A stretch of 64,000 nucleotides of DNA from Candidatus Poseidoniaceae archaeon (GCA_965662895.1 CBFIJH010000012.1:2491-66490); one strand, 5' to 3'; counted from the first letter of the stretch, positions 1,949 to 11,117 are shown. Program-made: numbers and translations. Notes: generated by a model from the sequence alone, not told the origin.

Positions 1949-3517
1949 TCATTCCTCAGGGATGTAGAACAACTCGACGCTACCTGTTCCAAGGGAAATC
2001 GGTTGTCCAACAATAATGTTCTCTGCAACACCAGTGAGACGGTCTGTCTCACCAATGATACCTGCCTTGAGCAGATGGTTAACGGTAACCTCGAAGGCAG
2101 CTCGTGCAAGAATACTGTGTTTTGTTCCTGAGACACCGTGTCGACCAATCGCTCGTACTTCACCTTCAGAAGTCATGACGTCGGCAACCATCAACAGGTG
2201 TCGAACGTCTACTTCGAGGCGCGCACTGAGCAGCGTTGACTCAAGTTCGTTGATGATTGCTTGACGTGCTGCTTCAATACCGAGGTAGTTGTAAATCTCG
2301 ATGATGTTGTTGGTGTAGGTTCGTGATCGGTCAATGGTTTCAATTTCACTAACTCTTGATAGGTTTGAACCGATGGTTGAGAGGTAGTATTCTCCATTTT
2401 TATCATCAAACTGAACGTTGGCTCGTTCAATGCCCGGTATACCCTTGAGTCGTAAATCTCGAATCTTTTCCTCAAGTTGGAGGAGCATGGTATACGAAGG
2501 TGGATTTTCTTGCAAATCAGCCAATTCTTCTTCACTCGAGATACCCGGAATGATTGTCAAGACTCCAGGATTCTTCTCTTTGTCGGTTTGTACGAGAGTT
2601 CGCAGTGCTCGTTCAAGTTTGTCCTTGACTTCCAAACCGGTCATATTCTTCTGCTTCAGTTGGCCTTTGTTGAGTTTCAAGACCAAACGGCGTTGCGCGA
2701 CGTCTGTTTCGATGTTGGCGATGTTGAAAGTTGTTGTTACTTCAAGCGCTGCAGCAAGTTTCTGAGCCTCATCGCTTGAATTCTTTTTCTCACCCTTCAA
2801 ACGGATGATCATCGTCGGCGTACTCGGAACCTTTCGAGCATCAACAATTTCGATGATACGTGGCAAACCTTGGGTTACGTTGACGGTTGCAACACCAGCA
2901 TAGTGAAACGTACGCATGGTCATTTGTGTTCCTGGTTCACCAATGGATTGAGCGGTGATGATTCCTGCCGCTTCGAACGGGTCAATGCTCGCTTTGTCAA
3001 GTGCAGCATAAGCATCAGCAACAACTGTTGCTGCTTGCTTCTTGGTCAACTTCTTCAAGTTACGTTCGTGGATAGCCAGCGTCATGTCGTGAAGGATTTT
3101 ACCACTGAACCTGTTGGTGCCCAAATCATCGACTGCTGCTTTGAGCGATTTGTAAACAGGATCATCAGCGAATTCGTCATCGTACGAACGAAGTTTCTTT
3201 TCAACATTGTATGCATCCAAATCTGCAGCGGTTTTCGCACGAGAACGGGTTCTGGAACCAACACGGCGCTTGAGGCGAACGTTTGTGGTTGGGCCAGTTG
3301 CCTCTGAACCAGCGGCTCGATTCTTTTTCAGTGCACCTTCAATGGTTTCACGAATTTTACCTGCAGTCTCGGAATCGGTTTCACAAACTTGAGCAATGTC
3401 TTGTGCTGAAAGCACTTTGACGTCGTCCCACTTTCGGTCGTTGGCCAACGTATGTGCAAAATTTTCTGCAATACCCAAGTCCATGAGTTTCTTCTTTGTT
3501 GCACTCTTAACAACCAT
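1949..3517 (-). CDS. rpoA2: DNA-directed RNA polymerase subunit A'' (Rpo1C) with an N-terminal extension
   Basis: [22 protein letters not shown] (trigger loop), [42 protein letters not shown]...GTG. Confidence 0.97.
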
Positions 3518-6500
3518 CAGAGGTCACCTCCATCGTGGAATTCTTCAACATCATCCCAAGCACCAAGGTCCTCCTCGGTTTCTTCACGCTCGATGCTTTC
3601 ACGAGTAATCTTTGAACCACCATCGGTTCCAAGAGCACCGTCAATGACGACGTCAATGTTGAAAGCTGCACCGTGAACACCTCGGCTTGGATCAATACCA
3701 TCTTCTCCATAGGAGAATTGGATGATTCGATTTGCTGTGTTACGAACGGAGAGCATATCATCGTTGAAGACCTTCAAATCATCCATTGCGTTGATCAAAC
3801 GTCGTTGCATGTACCCGGACTTCGAGGTACGAACAGCGGTATCGACAAGTGATTCTCTTCCTGAAACTGAGAGCATAAAGAACTCCGTCGGCTCAAGTCC
3901 ACGTTTGAATGAACCTGAAATGAAGCCTCGATCTTGAGCGCCACGTCCACCACGCTTGAAGTGCGGAAGAACACGGTCATCGTAACCACGCTCGAGACGC
4001 TTTCCACGGACTTTTGCTTGTCCAATGGAACCTGCCATCATGTTGAGGTTGTCCATCGATCCACGTGCACCTGAAATTGCCATGTTGACCGCAGCATTTG
4101 TTGAACCTGATTGATTCAGTTCATCCTTTGCAACGTCACCAGCGGCTTGCTTTCCTTCGTCGAGCATGACCATGATGTTCTCCTCGAGGGTCTCACGCAT
4201 GGTTCGACCTGGACGAGGCTCATACTTTCGAGGGTCGCCTTTCGCAGTTTCAAAACGCTCGAGTTCTTCTTCAACGAGTGTGCGTGCAGCAGCATTGGCT
4301 TCATCAATAGCGTCGAGAGCCTCGCGGCTTAGATCTTCATCATCAATACCTGTCGTAAATCCAAGGGATGTGCATGCTGCGATGGAGAGTCGTGTGAATT
4401 CGTTGAGGAACTGTGCACCCTTCTCGGAACCGTTGCTCTGTACGATGGCGTCGAGAAGACGACCGTCTTCAGCACCAATTGCACGCTTATCGAGGGTTCC
4501 GACAACATTTCCATCCTTGACGTGAACTTCATCACGGCTTCGTGACATAAAGTGAAGGTTGATGTTGTCAGGAACAATCAATGAAATCAAATCTTGTCCA
4601 CGGAAAGCATCGTTCCCGTTTTCATCCTTAACGACTTCAGGAAGGTCACCAGTGTAAGCGATGCTTCCAAGCATTTCCAAACCATGGGCCTTGGAAACCA
4701 AGGTTCCTGGACGAGAAAGCAGGTAAGCACCAGAGATGTGATCGTGGATTCCACCGATGACTGCTCCACCATAACGAGGTGTCAGGATGTGCTCTTGCAC
4801 ACGCATCAGAATCTTAGCTTCAGCACGGGCTTCTTCAGATTGAATAACGTGCAAGTTCATTTCGTCACCATCAAAATCAGCGTTGTACGGTGTACAAACG
4901 GCGAGGTTGAAACGGAAAGTGTGACCTTCCATGACTCGAACTTCGTGAACCATCATCGACATTCGGTGAAGCGAAGGTTGTCGGTTGAAGATGGCAACGT
5001 CACCATCGATGAGGTGGCGCTCAACTTGCATACCGGGCTTCGGATTCCCGCGGATATCCACAGTCGAAAGTCGGTCTTCGACGGGTGTTGGCATCTCGTA
5101 ATCATCTTCTGGGCTGCCACAGTGTGGGCAACGAATCTCAAGATGCTCTGGGAATGGCTCAGGGTCCGGGTTGTCGGCTTGGGCAAGTTCATGCATCCAA
5201 CGGTAGTGAAGAACCGCTCGTGGGTCATCCTCTGGCAGAGGGTGCCCATGCTCGTCTTCGCCACGAAGGTTTCGTAGCGTTTCTTCATCATCGACGATGT
5301 AACTGGATTCGGTCAAATCGCTACCCTCGACACGGTTGATGAGAGGACGAACAACCAGTCCAGGCAAGAAGTTTGGTGCTGGAAGTACAGAATCCAAGTC
5401 GAAACGCAGTGTGTGTTCCGATTCACATTCAGGGTTGTGGCATCGGAATCCTGCGTTGATCAAGCGGCTTCGTGGGTTGATTCGAACACGTCGACCATCT
5501 CCACGAACGATGTAGTTGACACCAGGATGTACTTCTGGTCCGCGTAGAATCATTTGACGCATTTGTTCACGATTTCGCAGCGTTACGCGGATGGGAACGG
5601 TCAATTCCTTGGCCACTTTCACAGGGACACCGACTTCGTTAACACCGAGATAGGGATCCGGAGAAATAACGGAACGTGCACAGAAATTAACACGCTTTCC
5701 GGAGAGGTTCGAACGGAAACGACCTTCCTTACCCTTCAATCGCTGGGTCAACGTTTTGAGGGTACGACCTGAACGGTGTCGAGCAGGAGGTACACCGGAA
5801 GTTTGGTTGTCAAAGTAGGTTGTAACGTGGTATTGCAACAACTCCCACAAGTCTTCAACAATCAGTTGCGGAGCACCCGAATCACGATTTTCTTGAAGGC
5901 GTTGGTTGATACGTAGAACGTCGACGAGTTTGTGCGTGAGGTCGTCTTCCGAACGGTCACCACTGTCAAGGGTAATCGATGGACGTACGGTGATAGGTGG
6001 AACTGGAAGGACTTTGAGAACCGTCCACTCAGGGCGGTTTTGCTTGTCCATTCCAATGAAGATGAGGTGCTCATCAGGGATACTCGCGAGCCACTCTCGA
6101 ACGTCTCGAGGATTCATCTTGCGCTCTGTTTCCTTTCCACCGGTTCCGACGTTCTCAGTACGCTCTTTGAATGTGGTCGGTTTGTCGAGTCGAATCTCGC
6201 CTTGGGTTTCACCACAGTGCATACATGTTCGTCGGTTCTTGCTTGAAGCTACCTTTTCGACTTCCTTGATGATGCTTGAGAATTCTGTCGAACCTACGCC
6301 GTGTTTGGTGATAATGTCCTTGATTCGCGAGCGGTAGTAATCTTGCTCGGAAAGTTCCGGATTTGATGGGTGTGTTTCTTTCGCAGAGTGAAGAAGAACT
6401 TGGCTGCAGGATTTGCATGTGGACTTGAGTGCAGTCTTGATCAGGTTAACGAACCCGATGTGAATAACAGGCAGTTCAAGTTGAATGTGTCCAAAGTGGC

Positions 6501-6726
6501 CAGGTGATTCATCGTACTTGCAGTTGTCCGTTGGACAAACCAAACCAGGTTCAATGACACCCATGTGCGGATCCATTAGGCCTTGACGGTAGGCGTGACC
6601 ATCGTCCTTGTAAGTGTCAGGAGTCTTTACTTCAACAGAGGACATCTTACGGATTTCAACAGGGTCCATCAGGCCGAAACGGATTTGTGCAATTCGCTTT
6701 GGTATCAATGTGGTTTTTCGGCTCAT
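3517..6726 (-). CDS. rpoA1: DNA-directed RNA polymerase subunit A' (Rpo1N)
   Basis: Catalytic [49 protein letters not shown]. Confidence 0.98.
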
Positions 6727-9700
6727 CTTCGGTCCTCCAGTTCAAGTCGCATGGCTACCCCAAGACTCTTCATTTCGTCGAGCAGGAGTTTGAATGCATA
6801 GGATGTTTGTACCTTGTAGACTTCAGCACCGTCACCGTGGACAGGGCTGACGTACGTGCGACGTTTTGGATCGTACCAGGCGATGTGACCCGATTGGGCA
6901 CACACGTACATGTCAATACCATCGGATTCGTCGAGGAGACGATCTTTGATGACCATGGACGCTCCATGAGCAATCAAGCAGTCACGTTCCATCTCACCGA
7001 ATCGTAGACCACCTTGACGGGCACGTCCTTCGGTTGGTTGGCGGGTGAGAATCTGAACTCGTCCTCGGGAACGAGCGTGAATCTTCGAACTGACGAGGTG
7101 GTGGAGTCGTTGGTAATAGATACAGCCGACGAAGATTTCTGCAGGGTAAGCTTCACCTGTTTCACCGTTAATCATTGTTTCTCGACCTGTGTGGGCAAGC
7201 CCATTGCGTACGAGTCCGTCACGAAGACTGCTTTCCTTTTCACCACGGAATGCGGTACCATCGATTCGACGGCCTTCCATTGCTCCGACCTTCCCACCAA
7301 TCATTTCCAGAACGTGGGCAACGGTCATCCGGGACGGAATAGCGTGAGGGTTGATGATCAAATCAGGGACGACACCGTCTTGTGTAAACGGCATATCTTC
7401 GGGCTCGACAAGTCGGCCAATGACACCTTTTTGTCCGTGACGTGATGCAAATTTGTCACCAACTTCTGGAACTTTGTGGCTTCGCACCATCACTCGAACA
7501 AGACGTCCGGAGTTGTCGGACTCTGTAACGTAGACGTTGTCAACCCATCCTTTCTCTCCATGACGAACAAGCATCGAAGATTCTCGGCGTTCTTGCGCCA
7601 TGAGGAAGGCTCCGCTGTTTGATTCCTCAAGGAATCGAGGCGGGCTCGTCTTTCCAACAAGAACATCGCCACCTTCAAGGTAAGTTTCAGGGAGAGGCAG
7701 GCCGTCATCTTCGAGATGGAAGTATGCTTCAGCGGGCTTCAATCCCTTCACTTCCGTCAACTTGTTTCCTGGCTTTTCGATTTCTTCTACTTGACCACCT
7801 GGGAATCGTCGTCGCTCAGCATTGTACGTCCGGTTGAACGTTGACCGTCCAAGGCCACGATCAACAGATGCACGATTCATGATAACTGCATCTTGCATGT
7901 TGTAGCCGTGTAGAGACATGATTGCAACGATGAAGTTTTGTCCTCCTGGCCGCTCATCGAAATTTGTAGTTCGCATGGCATCCGTGCGGACGATTGAACG
8001 GTGCGGATAATGCAGGATGTGCGCACGTGTGTCAGGTCGCATACGGTAATTTGCACTTGGCAATCCGAGAGATTGCTTGACCATTGCAGTACCACCGGTA
8101 ACACGTGGCGTTGAGTTGTGTTCTGGATACGGAATGAGAGAAGCACATACACCGAGAACGAGCTGTGGATCGATTTCGACGTGTGTGTGCTCTGCAGTGT
8201 AGAGAAGCGGCACATCAAACTTGGCGACTTCGATGCTACCATTTGGCATTCGAACCTCAGCCTCAATCGAAGCAAATTCTACACCAGGTTCTCCAAGATT
8301 TGTCCAACGGATTTTCTCGTGCGTTACAGGTCGACCTTCGAGAGGTCCTTGTGGTACGGTTTCAGGAAGGACGAACGGGCGTGGTGCGATGTAGAGATCT
8401 TCTTCTTCCTCAGCGTCGACCCATTCGACGATTCCATCAATGACCAAGTCACGGAACGTGATGGTACCATCTGCGAGACCGACGAGATGACTGTTTTCGA
8501 GTCGAGGCGTTCCGTCGTAAAGAATCAGCAGCGGACGAAGGATTCGACCCTTATCGGTGTTGATGAAGATATCTCGATTTTCTGTGTCGTGACGAATGGA
8601 GACCTCGGATGGAATCGTTCCTCGTCGGCGGCTGTTTTTGAACTGAGAAAGCAAGTTCTTTCCGTTCTTGTGCATTCCATAAATGTCACCGTTTACGTGA
8701 ATTCGGTCTCCGTCAGTCCAGTCTTTCGGCTGGTATACGTCCAATTCATCGAGGCGTTCGCGGACTTCCTGGGGGTCAACCTCTTCGGAAATATCGACCA
8801 TCTGCGCTGCGTTCTTTACCAGTCCACAGTTTTGTCCTTCTGGCGTCTCGTTCGGACACAAACGTCCCCATTGCGTTGGGTGAAGGTCACGGGCCTCGAA
8901 ATGCGGTTGACTTCGAACCAATGGCGATGTGACACGGCGCATGTGCGAGAGCGAAGCGAGGTAGGTTGTTCGGTCAAGGAGTTGGCTTACTCCCGATCGT
9001 CCGCCGACCCAGTTACCGGTTGCAAGGGCGTGGAGAATTTTCGAAGAAAGAACGTCCGGACGAAGGCACGATGTAATCTTCAACTCTCGCTTTCGGTTAT
9101 GATGGCGTTCAAGTTGGTATTTGAGGTCACGTGCGAGCTGTCCGGATGAAACGCGGAACAAATCTTCGATGAGGTCCCCTGCGAGACGTACACGCTTGTT
9201 TGCATAGTGGTCCTTGTCGTTTGGTTCGCTATCGTTGAGCGCCATTTCGAGAACTTGACGAACAATGCGGCCAAGGAAAATTGCTTTCTTCTTTCTGTCT
9301 TCAACCTGGTCGCCCAAGTGAGGCAACAACTCACGGTCGAGAAGTTGATTGACACGAGCCTCGCGGTACTCCTTTTGCTGACCGGCTGCAAATTTCTTCT
9401 GCAACCACTCGTATGCTTCAGGTTCGCTCTTGACGAAGAACTCCTCGTTGTCGTTCACTTCGTTGATGTTCGCAACGATGTACTTGAACGTCTCTTGAGG
9501 ACCCGAAATTGCGGTGAAGATTTCTTGGTCATTCTCAATACCGAGAGCACGCATCAACAAAACAACTGGAATTGGTGTGGTTCCAGCTGTGCTTACCTTC
9601 ACCATCAGCATACCGTCACGGCGCTTTTCAACAGTAAGTGGTTTGCGCATTCCGTTTTTCTGGGAGAAAATCTTTGCAACCTCAGTTCGCTTCGCAGTTC

Positions 9701-10331
9701 GCTTGTTGATTTCAACCGTAACTCGGTTTGGTGCAAGATCTTCCATGGAAATGAGAACACGTTCTGTTCCATTGATGATGAAATAGCCACCTGGGTCAAG
9801 CGGGTCCTCGCCCTTGTCACGTAGGAGGTTCGCAAGTAATGCTGCATCTTCAGGGGATTTGGATGGCTCGAGGGTTCGGCCATCGGCGATGTGACTTGGG
9901 TGGAGATGGCACCGGCGTGATCGAACCATGATCGGTATCGCTCCGACTTGGACACCTTCTTCGGGGAATGAAGCGACTCCGTTTCGGTAAATTGTGAAGT
10001 CAATGGTGACTGGGGATTGGTAGGTTAACTTGCGCAGACGGCATTCCATCGGCGATGCGTTGTGATACGAACCATTTGCTTCACGGATGTTTGGAGCGCC
10101 CAGTGTGATGTTTTTCATACGAATGACAATGTCTTGGTCAGCGACGTCGAGCTTGATGTAGCCGCCAAGTTCATCGATGATTTCTTCATCCGTACCAACG
10201 CGGATGTTCTGGATGATTCGCTCCATTCGGGACAACTGGTTATCGGTTGAAGGTATGCAATCGTTGTACGATGCGAGCTGATGGTTGACAAGGCTACGTT
10301 CTCGGAAAAAGGATTCAATTATTTCTTGCAT
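6723..10331 (-). CDS. rpoB: DNA-directed RNA polymerase subunit B (Rpo2, unsplit)
   Basis: GGYFIINGTERV, ETPEGQNCGLVKN, GDKFASRHGQKG, RFGEMERD. Start reassigned to MQEIIESFF at 10331; the longer ORF overlaps rpoH. Confidence 0.97.
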   Translation of the reverse strand: MQEIIESFFRERSLVNHQLASYNDCIPSTDNQLSRMERIIQNIRVGTDEEIIDELGGYIKLDVADQDIVIRMKNITLGAPNIREANGSYHNASPMECRLRKLTYQSPVTIDFTIYRNGVASFPEEGVQVGAIPIMVRSRRCHLHPSHIADGRTLEPSKSPEDAALLANLLRDKGEDPLDPGGYFIINGTERVLISMEDLAPNRVTVEINKRTAKRTEVAKIFSQKNGMRKPLTVEKRRDGMLMVKVSTAGTTPIPVVLLMRALGIENDQEIFTAISGPQETFKYIVANINEVNDNEEFFVKSEPEAYEWLQKKFAAGQQKEYREARVNQLLDRELLPHLGDQVEDRKKKAIFLGRIVRQVLEMALNDSEPNDKDHYANKRVRLAGDLIEDLFRVSSGQLARDLKYQLERHHNRKRELKITSCLRPDVLSSKILHALATGNWVGGRSGVSQLLDRTTYLASLSHMRRVTSPLVRSQPHFEARDLHPTQWGRLCPNETPEGQNCGLVKNAAQMVDISEEVDPQEVRERLDELDVYQPKDWTDGDRIHVNGDIYGMHKNGKNLLSQFKNSRRRGTIPSEVSIRHDTENRDIFINTDKGRILRPLLILYDGTPRLENSHLVGLADGTITFRDLVIDGIVEWVDAEEEEDLYIAPRPFVLPETVPQGPLEGRPVTHEKIRWTNLGEPGVEFASIEAEVRMPNGSIEVAKFDVPLLYTAEHTHVEIDPQLVLGVCASLIPYPEHNSTPRVTGGTAMVKQSLGLPSANYRMRPDTRAHILHYPHRSIVRTDAMRTTNFDERPGGQNFIVAIMSLHGYNMQDAVIMNRASVDRGLGRSTFNRTYNAERRRFPGGQVEEIEKPGNKLTEVKGLKPAEAYFHLEDDGLPLPETYLEGGDVLVGKTSPPRFLEESNSGAFLMAQERRESSMLVRHGEKGWVDNVYVTESDNSGRLVRVMVRSHKVPEVGDKFASRHGQKGVIGRLVEPEDMPFTQDGVVPDLIINPHAIPSRMTVAHVLEMIGGKVGAMEGRRIDGTAFRGEKESSLRDGLVRNGLAHTGRETMINGETGEAYPAEIFVGCIYYQRLHHLVSSKIHARSRGRVQILTRQPTEGRARQGGLRFGEMERDCLIAHGASMVIKDRLLDESDGIDMYVCAQSGHIAWYDPKRRTYVSPVHGDGAEVYKVQTSYAFKLLLDEMKSLGVAMRLELEDRR

Positions 10332-10347
10332 GGTATCAACTCCAGGT

Positions 10348-10995
10348 TCAACTGCCCTCCACGATGAGGCGGTAGGCAACTGCGGTACCTGCGGATTTTG
10401 ATCGGCGTATGACCTTGAGGACACGATCTGCAATCCATCCTGCAGCCAACGGCCTGTGGTCTGGATTAGCGGCAAGTGCAGCGTTATCGATGGTTTCTGC
10501 CGCTTCCTTGATCGCTTGAACAACCGGATCCGAAATCAAAACTTTCGGAAGAATCTCCTTTGCGAGACGAAGGTTGCCGTCTTCGTCAACTTCTTCCAAA
10601 CCCCATGGTTCAAGCTCGTCACGTTCGATGTTGTATTGCTCTACAGGCGAGATGTTCGCAGCGCCGAGCAGTTCTTGATGAGGAACTAGTTCGTGATTGA
10701 GCGGGTTGAATCGAATGCTTATCTCTGGTCGATCGAATTCATCGATGGCCTTGGATGAGATGGTGATTTTCTTGCTCTTTTTGATGCGGGAGCGGCGGTT
10801 GCCCTGGTCGGCAATAATCTGCATGATTTTGGTGAAGGTTTCGCTGTCTTTTCCAATTCCGAGAATCTTTGCGATTTCATCGGCAGGCATACTTTTGATG
10901 TCGGCCATGTTTCGGTCCGTGGCAAGTTTGTGGGCGTGTTCGTCGGAGACTCCGAGTTCAATTAACCGTTTTTTCGTTGCGCTCTTTACTACCAT
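10348..10995 (-). CDS. rpoH: RNA polymerase subunit H (Rpo5), enlarged to 215 aa
   Basis: C-terminal HELVPHQELL...LPKVLISDPVV...VLKVIRRSKSAG...YRLIVE matches Rpo5/RPB5-C. First gene of the rpo operon. Confidence 0.9.
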   Translation of the reverse strand: MVVKSATKKRLIELGVSDEHAHKLATDRNMADIKSMPADEIAKILGIGKDSETFTKIMQIIADQGNRRSRIKKSKKITISSKAIDEFDRPEISIRFNPLNHELVPHQELLGAANISPVEQYNIERDELEPWGLEEVDEDGNLRLAKEILPKVLISDPVVQAIKEAAETIDNAALAANPDHRPLAAGWIADRVLKVIRRSKSAGTAVAYRLIVEGS

Positions 10996-11043
10996 CCAAC
11001 TTCACCCCGCAAAGCCCTCAACGTTGTGCTGCGGCGCAGTAGG

Positions 11044-11117
11044 CGGGCCCGACGGGGTTCGAACCCGCGACCATCGGGTTAAAAGCCCGACGCTCTACCT
11101 GACTGAGCTACAGGCCC
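11044..11117 (-). tRNA. tRNA-Lys (anticodon UUU)
   Basis: Reverse complement GGGCCTGTAGCTCAGTCAGGTAGAGCGTCGGGCTTTTAACCCGATGGTCGCGGGTTCGAACCCCGTCGGGCCCG forms a cloverleaf with anticodon loop CT-TTT-AA. Confidence 0.96.

Follow-up and report, generated by a model that had tools for sequence, protein, structure and literature searches.

A paralogous, predicted (HhH)2/SAM-like domain at the N-termini of RNA polymerase subunits RpoH and RpoA'' in Poseidoniales archaea

The C-terminal domain of the bacterial RNA polymerase alpha subunit (alpha-CTD) is a small helical domain of the helix-hairpin-helix (HhH) type, present twice per enzyme at the end of a flexible linker, that contacts both DNA and factors. 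Other proteins carry domains with two such hairpins, (HhH)2, and several of those of the RadA, XPF and FANCM type work as heterodimers. In archaea, subunit RpoH (Rpo5) is described in the accessible text of two reports as having no N-terminal extension (PMC3906176, PMC2675907); the opening ~130 residues of Rpb5, the jaw, are absent from it, and it consists of the C-terminal assembly domain only (PMC2675907, accessible text). According to the available portions of two papers, the groove left by the missing jaw adjoins the clamp head, and Rpo13, a lineage-specific small helical module of the Sulfolobales and Desulfurococcales, docks there next to Rpo5, on the N-terminal side of the latter, its lysine-rich tail lying close to the downstream DNA (PMC2675907, PMC13257274). 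Subunit H lies near downstream DNA and plays an important part when open complexes form, as stated in the accessible part of a further report (PMC2847245). Here we analyze a stretch of 64,000 nucleotides (nt) from a Candidatus Poseidoniaceae archaeon (GCA_965662895.1, CBFIJH010000012.1:2491-66490), referred to as the window, in which RpoH and the subunit RpoA'' (A'', Rpo1C) both begin with copies of one N-terminal domain (NTD). An earlier note, made from the sequence of the window, had proposed that the same extra domain was grafted onto these two subunits and that it formed a polymerase appendage that may dimerise or bind DNA. All coordinates are those of the window, and all features described in it are on the minus strand.

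The genes follow one another in the order of the archaeal polymerase operon, tRNA-Lys(UUU), rpoH, rpoB, rpoA' and rpoA'', and all four polymerase genes were identified by Pfam and NCBIfam. The two open reading frames (ORFs) of interest were found as the earlier note had described them, and the N-terminal residues quoted there are exact. The product of rpoA'' (1949..3517, stop codon included; 522 amino acids, aa) belongs to TIGR02389 (rpoA2; E 7.9e-129, 429.8 bits against an equivalog cut-off of 420.65, aa 140-517) and matches PF04998 over aa 141-468. That of rpoH (10348..10995, stop codon included; 215 aa) belongs to PF01191, the Rpb5 C-terminal assembly domain (E 7.7e-9, 35.6 bits against a cut-off of 23.5, aa 142-211). 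Its score with NF007129, 42 bits over aa 141-213, is below the equivalog cut-off of 83 because of insertions in the RpoH body; the identity of rpoH is also backed by the synteny rpoH-rpoB-rpoA'-rpoA'' and by alignment with plain RpoH proteins. The canonical models thus start late, TIGR02389 at aa 140 of A'' and NF007129 at aa 141 of RpoH, and in an alignment with plain RpoH of 80-81 aa the canonical part of RpoH begins near aa 95. The extensions measure ~139 aa in A'' and ~94 aa in RpoH.

Both extensions open with what we call the type-1 NTD. In A'' it occupies aa 1-65 (3323..3517) and comprises a basic tail (aa 1-10) and a predicted five-helix (HhH)2-like bundle, as judged from a structural model, fold matches and orthologue conservation; the linker follows (aa 66-98, 3224..3322), and then an acidic remainder (aa 99-139, 3101..3223) that precedes the start of the canonical rpoA2 model. 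The RpoH copy, aa 1-64 (10804..10995), is present in 11/11 RpoH orthologues aligned. It is followed by a linker (aa 65-94, 10714..10803), composed of a basic stretch at aa 65-84 (net charge +8) and a short acidic stretch, and by the canonical body (aa 95-215, 10351..10713), delimited by alignment with the RpoH of the sister order and carrying lineage-specific insertions relative to RpoH of 80-81 aa. The net charges of the tail (aa 1-10), the helical core and the linker are +4, -4 and +8 in both proteins, in agreement with the basic linker noticed earlier after each domain. The linkers, 20-35 residues that tie the domain to the subunit body, are poorly conserved.

This arrangement can be compared with those described for other polymerases. 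Like the Rpb5 jaw, the RpoH domain is an extra N-terminal domain on Rpo5/Rpb5. However, the jaw has ~130 residues and another fold whereas the domain described here has ~65, and RpoH had no match to the Pfam family of the Rpb5 N-domain at E<=1; the likeness is convergent at most. Rpo13 shares with the domain its restriction to a lineage, its small helical build, a basic tail and, as proposed for the RpoH copy, a location beside the N-terminal side of Rpo5, towards the downstream DNA, but it is a separate subunit of the helix-turn-helix type from another phylum, while here a predicted five-helix (HhH)2 module is fused to RpoH and has a second copy on RpoA''. On inspection, the two differ in gene organisation. 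The alpha-CTD offers the likeness of a small HhH-type domain, tethered and present twice per enzyme. It sits, however, at the C-terminal end of a subunit that is present in two copies, and on the upstream face, whereas the archaeal domains are at the N-termini of two subunits, RpoH and RpoA'', and probably on the downstream face. There is no sequence relationship between them, and alpha-CTD itself was absent among the fold matches listed, although NusA-AR2 solved with alpha-CTD was among them (2jzb, Z 6.8).

The first 80 aa of A'' and RpoH were compared by BLASTP as a single comparison, and they share 30 identities (49%) and 42 positives over 61 positions with one 2-residue gap (E 1e-17). The match is therefore far beyond chance, and the hand count of about 30 identities in 60 aa that had been reported before was accurate. 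Over codons 1-46 the copies agree in 23 residues, 15 of them encoded by different codons, nucleotide identity is 79/138, and the synonymous divergence (dS) between the two copies is saturated. These codon differences, some of which had already been noticed, together with the saturated dS point to an old duplication and rule out recent gene conversion and an assembly repeat. The median ratio of nonsynonymous to synonymous divergence (dN/dS) over codons 2-63, leaving out pairs with undefined dS or dS >=3, was 0.159 for A'' (14/45 pairs usable) and 0.210 for RpoH (25/55). Both copies are under purifying selection, and the earlier view of an old duplication kept by selection agrees with these values and with the presence of the domain across the whole order. 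A conserved Met opens the frame in 21/21 orthologues aligned (10 A'' and 11 RpoH from three families), followed by the remainder of a basic tail with the consensus MVVKS[AS]TKK[KR]. In A'', aa 1-13 are invariant in 10/10 diverse orthologues and 27 invariant columns fall within aa 1-49, while the linker varies freely. These results indicated that the two copies are paralogues and that both are translated.

The domain was then followed through the Poseidoniales, the Marine Group II archaea. The genome of the window (1.86 Mb, 92% complete) has exactly two copies, a count that includes a hidden Markov model (HMM) scan of 25,644 six-frame ORFs. Conservation in relatives, on which the earlier note had let its proposal depend, was found in 40/41 relatives of this genome and in 164/166 Poseidoniales genomes that are at least 85% complete; 152 of the latter have exactly two copies, 11 have one, two have none, and one has three, the extra copy being a duplicate A'' contig. 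In a sample of the class, the domain was detected in all members of two Poseidoniales families (f1, 49/49; f3, 26/26) and in no member of two families of the sister order (f4, 0/43; f5, 0/2). A profile search of 251 genomes of the phylum matched 53/53 Poseidoniales and 0/8 genomes of f4, and gave only three matches outside the order, all marginal (E 0.0035-0.01). The domain is therefore a fixed, order-specific feature, kept as exactly two copies per genome with one on each of two subunits, and its description as lineage-specific was correct.

An AlphaFold2 (AF2) model built from a 21-sequence alignment consists of a five-helix bundle (helices 6-13, 18-25, 30-34, 38-45 and 49-65; predicted local distance difference test, pLDDT, 80.3; predicted template modelling score, pTM, 0.58), with pLDDT below 50 at residues 1-3. 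The leading Foldseek matches in the PDB include the RadA N-domain, FANCM/FAAP24 (TMq 0.74-0.77, root-mean-square deviation, rmsd, 2.6-3.8) and the NusA C-terminal repeats; further matches were the HhH domains of Hef/XPF, UvrC, LigA and DisA, and also some unrelated helical proteins. VIA, a search independent of Foldseek that covered 48,161 chains, ranked SAM and (HhH)2 domains together (Z 6-8, 59-66 residues aligned), with FANCM-FAAP24 and a SAM domain at Z 8.1 and DisA, NusA, XPF and NusA-AR2 at Z 6.4-7.7. Across the top 16, alignments to the best fold matches, (HhH)2 and SAM domains, spanned 59-66 residues at rmsd 2.0-3.3. The predicted fold is a five-helix (HhH)2/SAM-like one, with two helix-hairpin-helix units joined by a connector helix, which bears out the HhH-like module that the earlier note had suggested. 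RadA/Rad51 N-termini, XPF-ERCC1, FANCM-FAAP24, Hef and the NusA acidic repeats share this two-hairpin architecture and are its best structural matches. They differ in protein context, the conserved basic N-terminal tail is not theirs, and no significant profile match links the domain to a solved chain or to a Pfam HhH family.

Some observations favour an HhH assignment less. Every Foldseek E value was 0.3 or higher, a weakness to be expected at a length of 66 residues. The VIA Z scores, at most 8.1, lie in a range that the tool gives as common for helical models, and a fold class is therefore claimed, not a family; SAM domains, whose role is protein-protein contact, reach scores as high as those of HhH domains. 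The G-h-G consensus fits only partly, and the sequence agrees loosely with two hairpins: hairpin 1 reads L-G-[IV]-x, with Gly15 at least 90% conserved, and hairpin 2 reads G-[ILT]-[DSG] in most copies, but in the A'' copy of the window it has Glu where orthologues have Gly. No Pfam HhH family (PF14520 HHH_5 is an example) matched aa 1-65 of either protein at E<=1, and among NCBIfam models no HhH family matched them at E<=0.1 apart from a sub-threshold match to the RadA N-domain (12 bits at E 0.082, the cut-off being 259). When the NTD alignment was searched against PDB sequence profiles, a designed repeat protein was the sole match (E 0.019, 17 residues), and it was rejected as meaningless. 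By sequence, the domain belongs to none of the families to which it was likened; it defines a sequence family of its own, absent from curated libraries and easily recognised.

The earlier note had missed a distantly similar domain, found on RpoA'' of the sister order and on a 363-aa protein of the genome of the window. RpoH of the sister order is plain, 80-81 aa in 3/3 loci (PF01191 E 1e-17 in the one tested), matching the size of about 80 aa that had been given as typical of Rpo5. RpoA'' there has 758-860 aa with an N-extension of ~390 aa, conserved in 21/22 f4 and 2/2 f5 genomes (loci L125-L146, e.g. L125:367-2640:-). A model of the first 330 residues (15 sequences, pLDDT 82.6, pTM 0.74) shows a five-helix head and, behind it, a middle domain rich in beta structure, then a long helix and finally a second bundle of HhH-like type. 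The head, termed type 2, sits at the same end of the same subunit and is modelled with the same helix pattern as the type-1 domain. The extension differs from that of the window in its length, in its middle domain and second bundle, and in the plain RpoH that accompanies it. Profile-profile comparison of types 1 and 2 gave probabilities of 68% and 65% (E ~5e-5), and HMMER linked no type-1 to a type-2 domain in the genome, class and phylum searches. The two types likely share a common origin. The second bundle showed no specific relationship to the NTD profile (probability 3.8%) and nothing below E 0.35 in a PDB profile search.

Folds of the YTH, EVE/THYN1 and ASCH families are PUA-like readers of modified bases. 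The middle domain of the sister-order extension resembles them in weak matches (E 0.01-0.05, probability up to 0.98), and an ESM Atlas search with it gave unnamed clusters only, plus a 13% 'Pua-like' lead. Judging from the model, it is possible that the RpoA'' extension of the sister order includes a modified-base reader, fused in this way to a polymerase subunit. In the genome of the window, the type-2 domain (MAKKDT...RRG...) heads a free-standing 363-aa protein (contig C6:26608-27696, plus strand; L151:1501-2592), in which a coiled coil and a zinc ribbon come after it. This protein has no Pfam family, and its gene adjoins DUF655 and KsgA-like genes. It is kept in 70/70 Poseidoniales sampled and in 0/20 members of the sister order, where the type-2 domain sits on RpoA''.

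Copies of the domain also occur outside the polymerase. A profile of 21 NTDs was searched against 1.84 billion representative proteins and matched 204 at E<=1e-3. Among the best 150 of these 204, 22 had A''-like tails, 17 had RpoH-like tails, 41 were too short to tell and 70 had other tails. The last group includes some frameshifted or chimeric polymerase fragments and one repetitive false positive, besides at least 12 multi-member carrier families (38 proteins, 116-1292 aa) and further singletons, whose tails have no similarity to polymerase and mostly no Pfam or PHROG match. The earlier note had missed that the domain is not confined to the polymerase but also heads at least 12 unrelated metagenomic families outside it. 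In 49/52 carriers examined the domain starts at residue 1-2; the A''-NTD model scored higher in 41 of the 52 and the RpoH-NTD model in 11. Both host genes thus seem to have been copied. A tree of the NTDs (82 rows, 62 columns) supports only the split between types 1 and 2 and a few small groups, its columns being too few for most forks, and some carriers in it adjoin particular RpoH sequences, such as P0048 with one RpoH at 100/86; beyond copying from both host types, no donor or order of events was drawn from it. P0059 (2474 aa, 18 short stretches) was rejected as a false positive, as it is repetitive and matches only 18 profile positions.

No carrier was found in the 166 Poseidoniales genomes. 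According to cluster metadata, several assemblies have one carrier family on contigs of 157-162 kb, a second family lies on a contig of 116 kb, and the source names of carrier clusters point to small size fractions. A search of JGI metagenome contigs with carrier P0157 gave one locus. The 7-kb carrier locus L124 has co-directional genes only; of two neighbours with matches, one resembles DUF5754 and the other DUF5872/phrog_14910, which has homologues in phages of Pelagibacter, Roseobacter and other marine hosts; its carrier gene has a TTG start behind GGAGGT, giving the same N-terminal motif. The metagenomic carrier P0094 (851 aa) combines N-terminal C2H2-like zinc fingers, the NTD at aa 93-146 and a defence-type ABC ATPase (PADLOC matches NsnB 2e-38, AriA 7e-17, PDC-M55A and GajA). 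Its role may be that of a decoy or guard towards any agent that targets the domain on the polymerase. Magrovirus 'group D' elements are said, in the accessible text of one report, to encode an RNA polymerase A gene (PMC5434244); a link between them and the carriers is possible.

We propose, with a probability of roughly 0.55, that the two domains are a tethered (HhH)2 pair at the downstream face of the polymerase, that they bind nucleic acid, a partner or both, and that mobile elements have copied them. The RpoH domain would start where eukaryotic Rpb5 has its jaw and where the Rpo13 of Sulfolobales docks, a position from which it would hang at the downstream-DNA face. The A'' domain would emerge at the A'/A'' junction; rpoA' and rpoA'' divide the Pfam Rpb1 domain-5 model between them, with the break at position 66. 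From domain maps, we take this split point to lie near the eukaryotic foot region, presumably in the mobile part of the enzyme to which Rpb5 also belongs. The pair would act as two tethered modules during open-complex formation and elongation. It could grip duplex DNA with its hairpins and its basic tail and linker, bring in a partner common to both copies, or do both. In function, such a pair would come closest to the two alpha-CTDs of the bacterial enzyme, to Rpo13 and to the Rpb5 jaw. The occurrence of the same module at the head of many unrelated virus-like proteins suggests that mobile elements repeatedly copied it from both host genes, and with it they may reach the same site or partner.

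Some observations are less favourable to this proposal. The acidic core, with a net charge of -4 in both copies, is closer to that of HhH domains that bind proteins, the NusA acidic repeats for instance, than to that of typical DNA-binding ones. The domain and two carriers were not found in IMG/VR viral contigs or GenBank phages, and a search of GTDB genome contigs with carrier P0111 found none; that the carriers are viral is reasonably inferred from one short contig and cluster metadata. A complex prediction for A'' aa 1-66 and RpoH aa 1-66, run with their own alignments and without controls, scored 0.00 against a mark of 0.32, and it speaks neither for nor against binding.

The acidic core flanked by basic segments would fit well with another explanation, possible though on balance doubtful, in which the domain is chiefly a protein-protein docking module comparable to SAM domains or NusA acidic repeats. 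The copies would then pair with each other or each recruit the same factor, the virus-like proteins would plug effectors onto the host polymerase or compete with the NTDs for the factor, and any DNA contact would be made only through the tail and linker. In line with this idea are the fold scores of SAM domains and NusA-AR2 (the latter solved with alpha-CTD), which are as high as those of DNA-binding HhH domains. So is the invariance of aa 1-13 of A'', which are kept in at least 12 unrelated carrier families, and such extreme conservation is better explained by a specific partner than by DNA contact through the backbone only. The nearly constant position of the NTD at residue 1-2 in carriers (49/52) is also as expected, and the carrier with a defence-type ATPase (NsnB E 2e-38, AriA E 7e-17) fits a decoy or guard role. 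However, the similar domain of the sister order adjoins a PUA-like fold and a second HhH-like bundle, a context that points to nucleic acid, and many (HhH)2 domains do both jobs, so docking overlaps with the proposal of a pair that binds nucleic acid, a partner or both.

A role in assembly or stoichiometry alone, in which the domains join RpoH and RpoA'' or mark both for a common chaperone and have no part in transcription, appears very unlikely. It would be compatible with the finding that two subunits whose final location is the same region of the enzyme have exactly one copy each, and in Methanococcus maripaludis Rpo1'/1'' and Rpo5/6 join in the same late assembly window, according to the available portion of one study (PMC13556214). 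Yet such domains are absent from all other archaea sampled, which assemble their enzyme all the same, the sister order and its plain RpoH among them, and an assembly tag would explain neither the many virus-like carriers nor the long basic linkers. The idea that the extensions are annotation artefacts, with true starts downstream and a shared sequence that is an untranslated leader or recent repeat, was named in the earlier note as a possible refutation; nothing was found in its favour, and it can be dismissed almost outright, given dN/dS of 0.16-0.21 with saturated dS, amino acids kept where codons differ (15/23 identical residues), a frame that opens with a conserved Met in 21/21 orthologues, a confidently predicted fold and, as read from the sequence, Shine-Dalgarno-like motifs before both ATGs (GGAGGTGA at 3524..3531 for rpoA''; GGGGTGA at 11002..11008, 6 nt before the ATG of rpoH).

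A bolder and tentative reading is that the domain is a docking handle on the Poseidoniales polymerase at the centre of a virus-host arms race, a modular 'polymerase address tag', recognisable by sequence and shared by host and virus. If this were true, uncultured viruses or other mobile elements of these archaea would repeatedly have copied the first 45-65 codons of host rpoA'' and rpoH onto at least a dozen unrelated effectors, which would attach to the polymerase or displace the NTDs from a shared partner, and at least one host defence-type ATPase would carry the module as a decoy or sensor. The PUA-like extension of the sister order would then point to a polymerase that senses modified nucleic acid.

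A whole order of very abundant marine archaea thus has a domain, predicted to be folded and tethered, on RpoH and a paralogue of it on RpoA''. The enzyme gains two mobile modules of the HhH type, which recalls the two bacterial alpha-CTDs with an independent origin. The arrangement is a lineage-specific accessory domain of a multisubunit polymerase, unusual in that the module is shared with many virus-like proteins. A literature search, with supplementary files outside its scope, found no published description of such domains, and the accessible text of a 2026 survey of archaeal small-subunit domains holds no word beginning with Poseidoni or Thermoplasmat (PMC13257274). The domain provides a rare computational handle linking viruses or mobile elements to uncultured Poseidoniales hosts, and its carriers make up a list of candidate modulators of host transcription. 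With 65 residues, it is also small enough for simple binding biochemistry.

The remaining features of the operon are as follows. The tRNA-Lys(UUU) gene (11042..11117; ARAGORN) lies 46 nt upstream of rpoH. A tRNA-like stretch precedes rpoH in sister-order loci too, as far as can be judged by the look of the translated frames, and it is possible that the tRNA is co-transcribed with the operon. The lineage-specific insertions in the RpoH body include one at about aa 112-120, present in 2/3 f1 sequences aligned, and a longer one at about aa 166-186 with a conserved AGW motif. The start of rpoB, which encodes an unsplit Rpo2 (6723..10331), was set by orthologues at the Met of MQEII/MKEI, at 10331 and 17 nt past the rpoH stop codon. 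The mechanically listed ORF reaches a TTG start at 10523 and overlaps the end of rpoH; this longer form (10331-10523) is probably not real.

The rpoA' gene (Rpo1N; 3517..6726, 1069 aa) contains Pfam Rpb1 domains 1-5, and its stop codon (3517-3519) overlaps the rpoA'' ATG (3515-3517) in the sequence TGATG. An insertion with CxxC-type motifs (aa ~430-560, window ~5046-5436) splits Rpb1 domain 2 into two stretches, with weak zinc-ribbon/DUF7577 matches at aa 530-542; RpoA' has 888-893 aa in the sister order. This insertion is a second lineage-specific elaboration of the polymerase. A large open-ended ORF at 2-1552 (517 aa seen) encodes a Gly/Ser/Thr-rich product in which beta-propeller-like motifs recur and which has a signal-like segment at its N-terminus; the protein is probably secreted or exposed at the surface, and it is unrelated to the polymerase finding.

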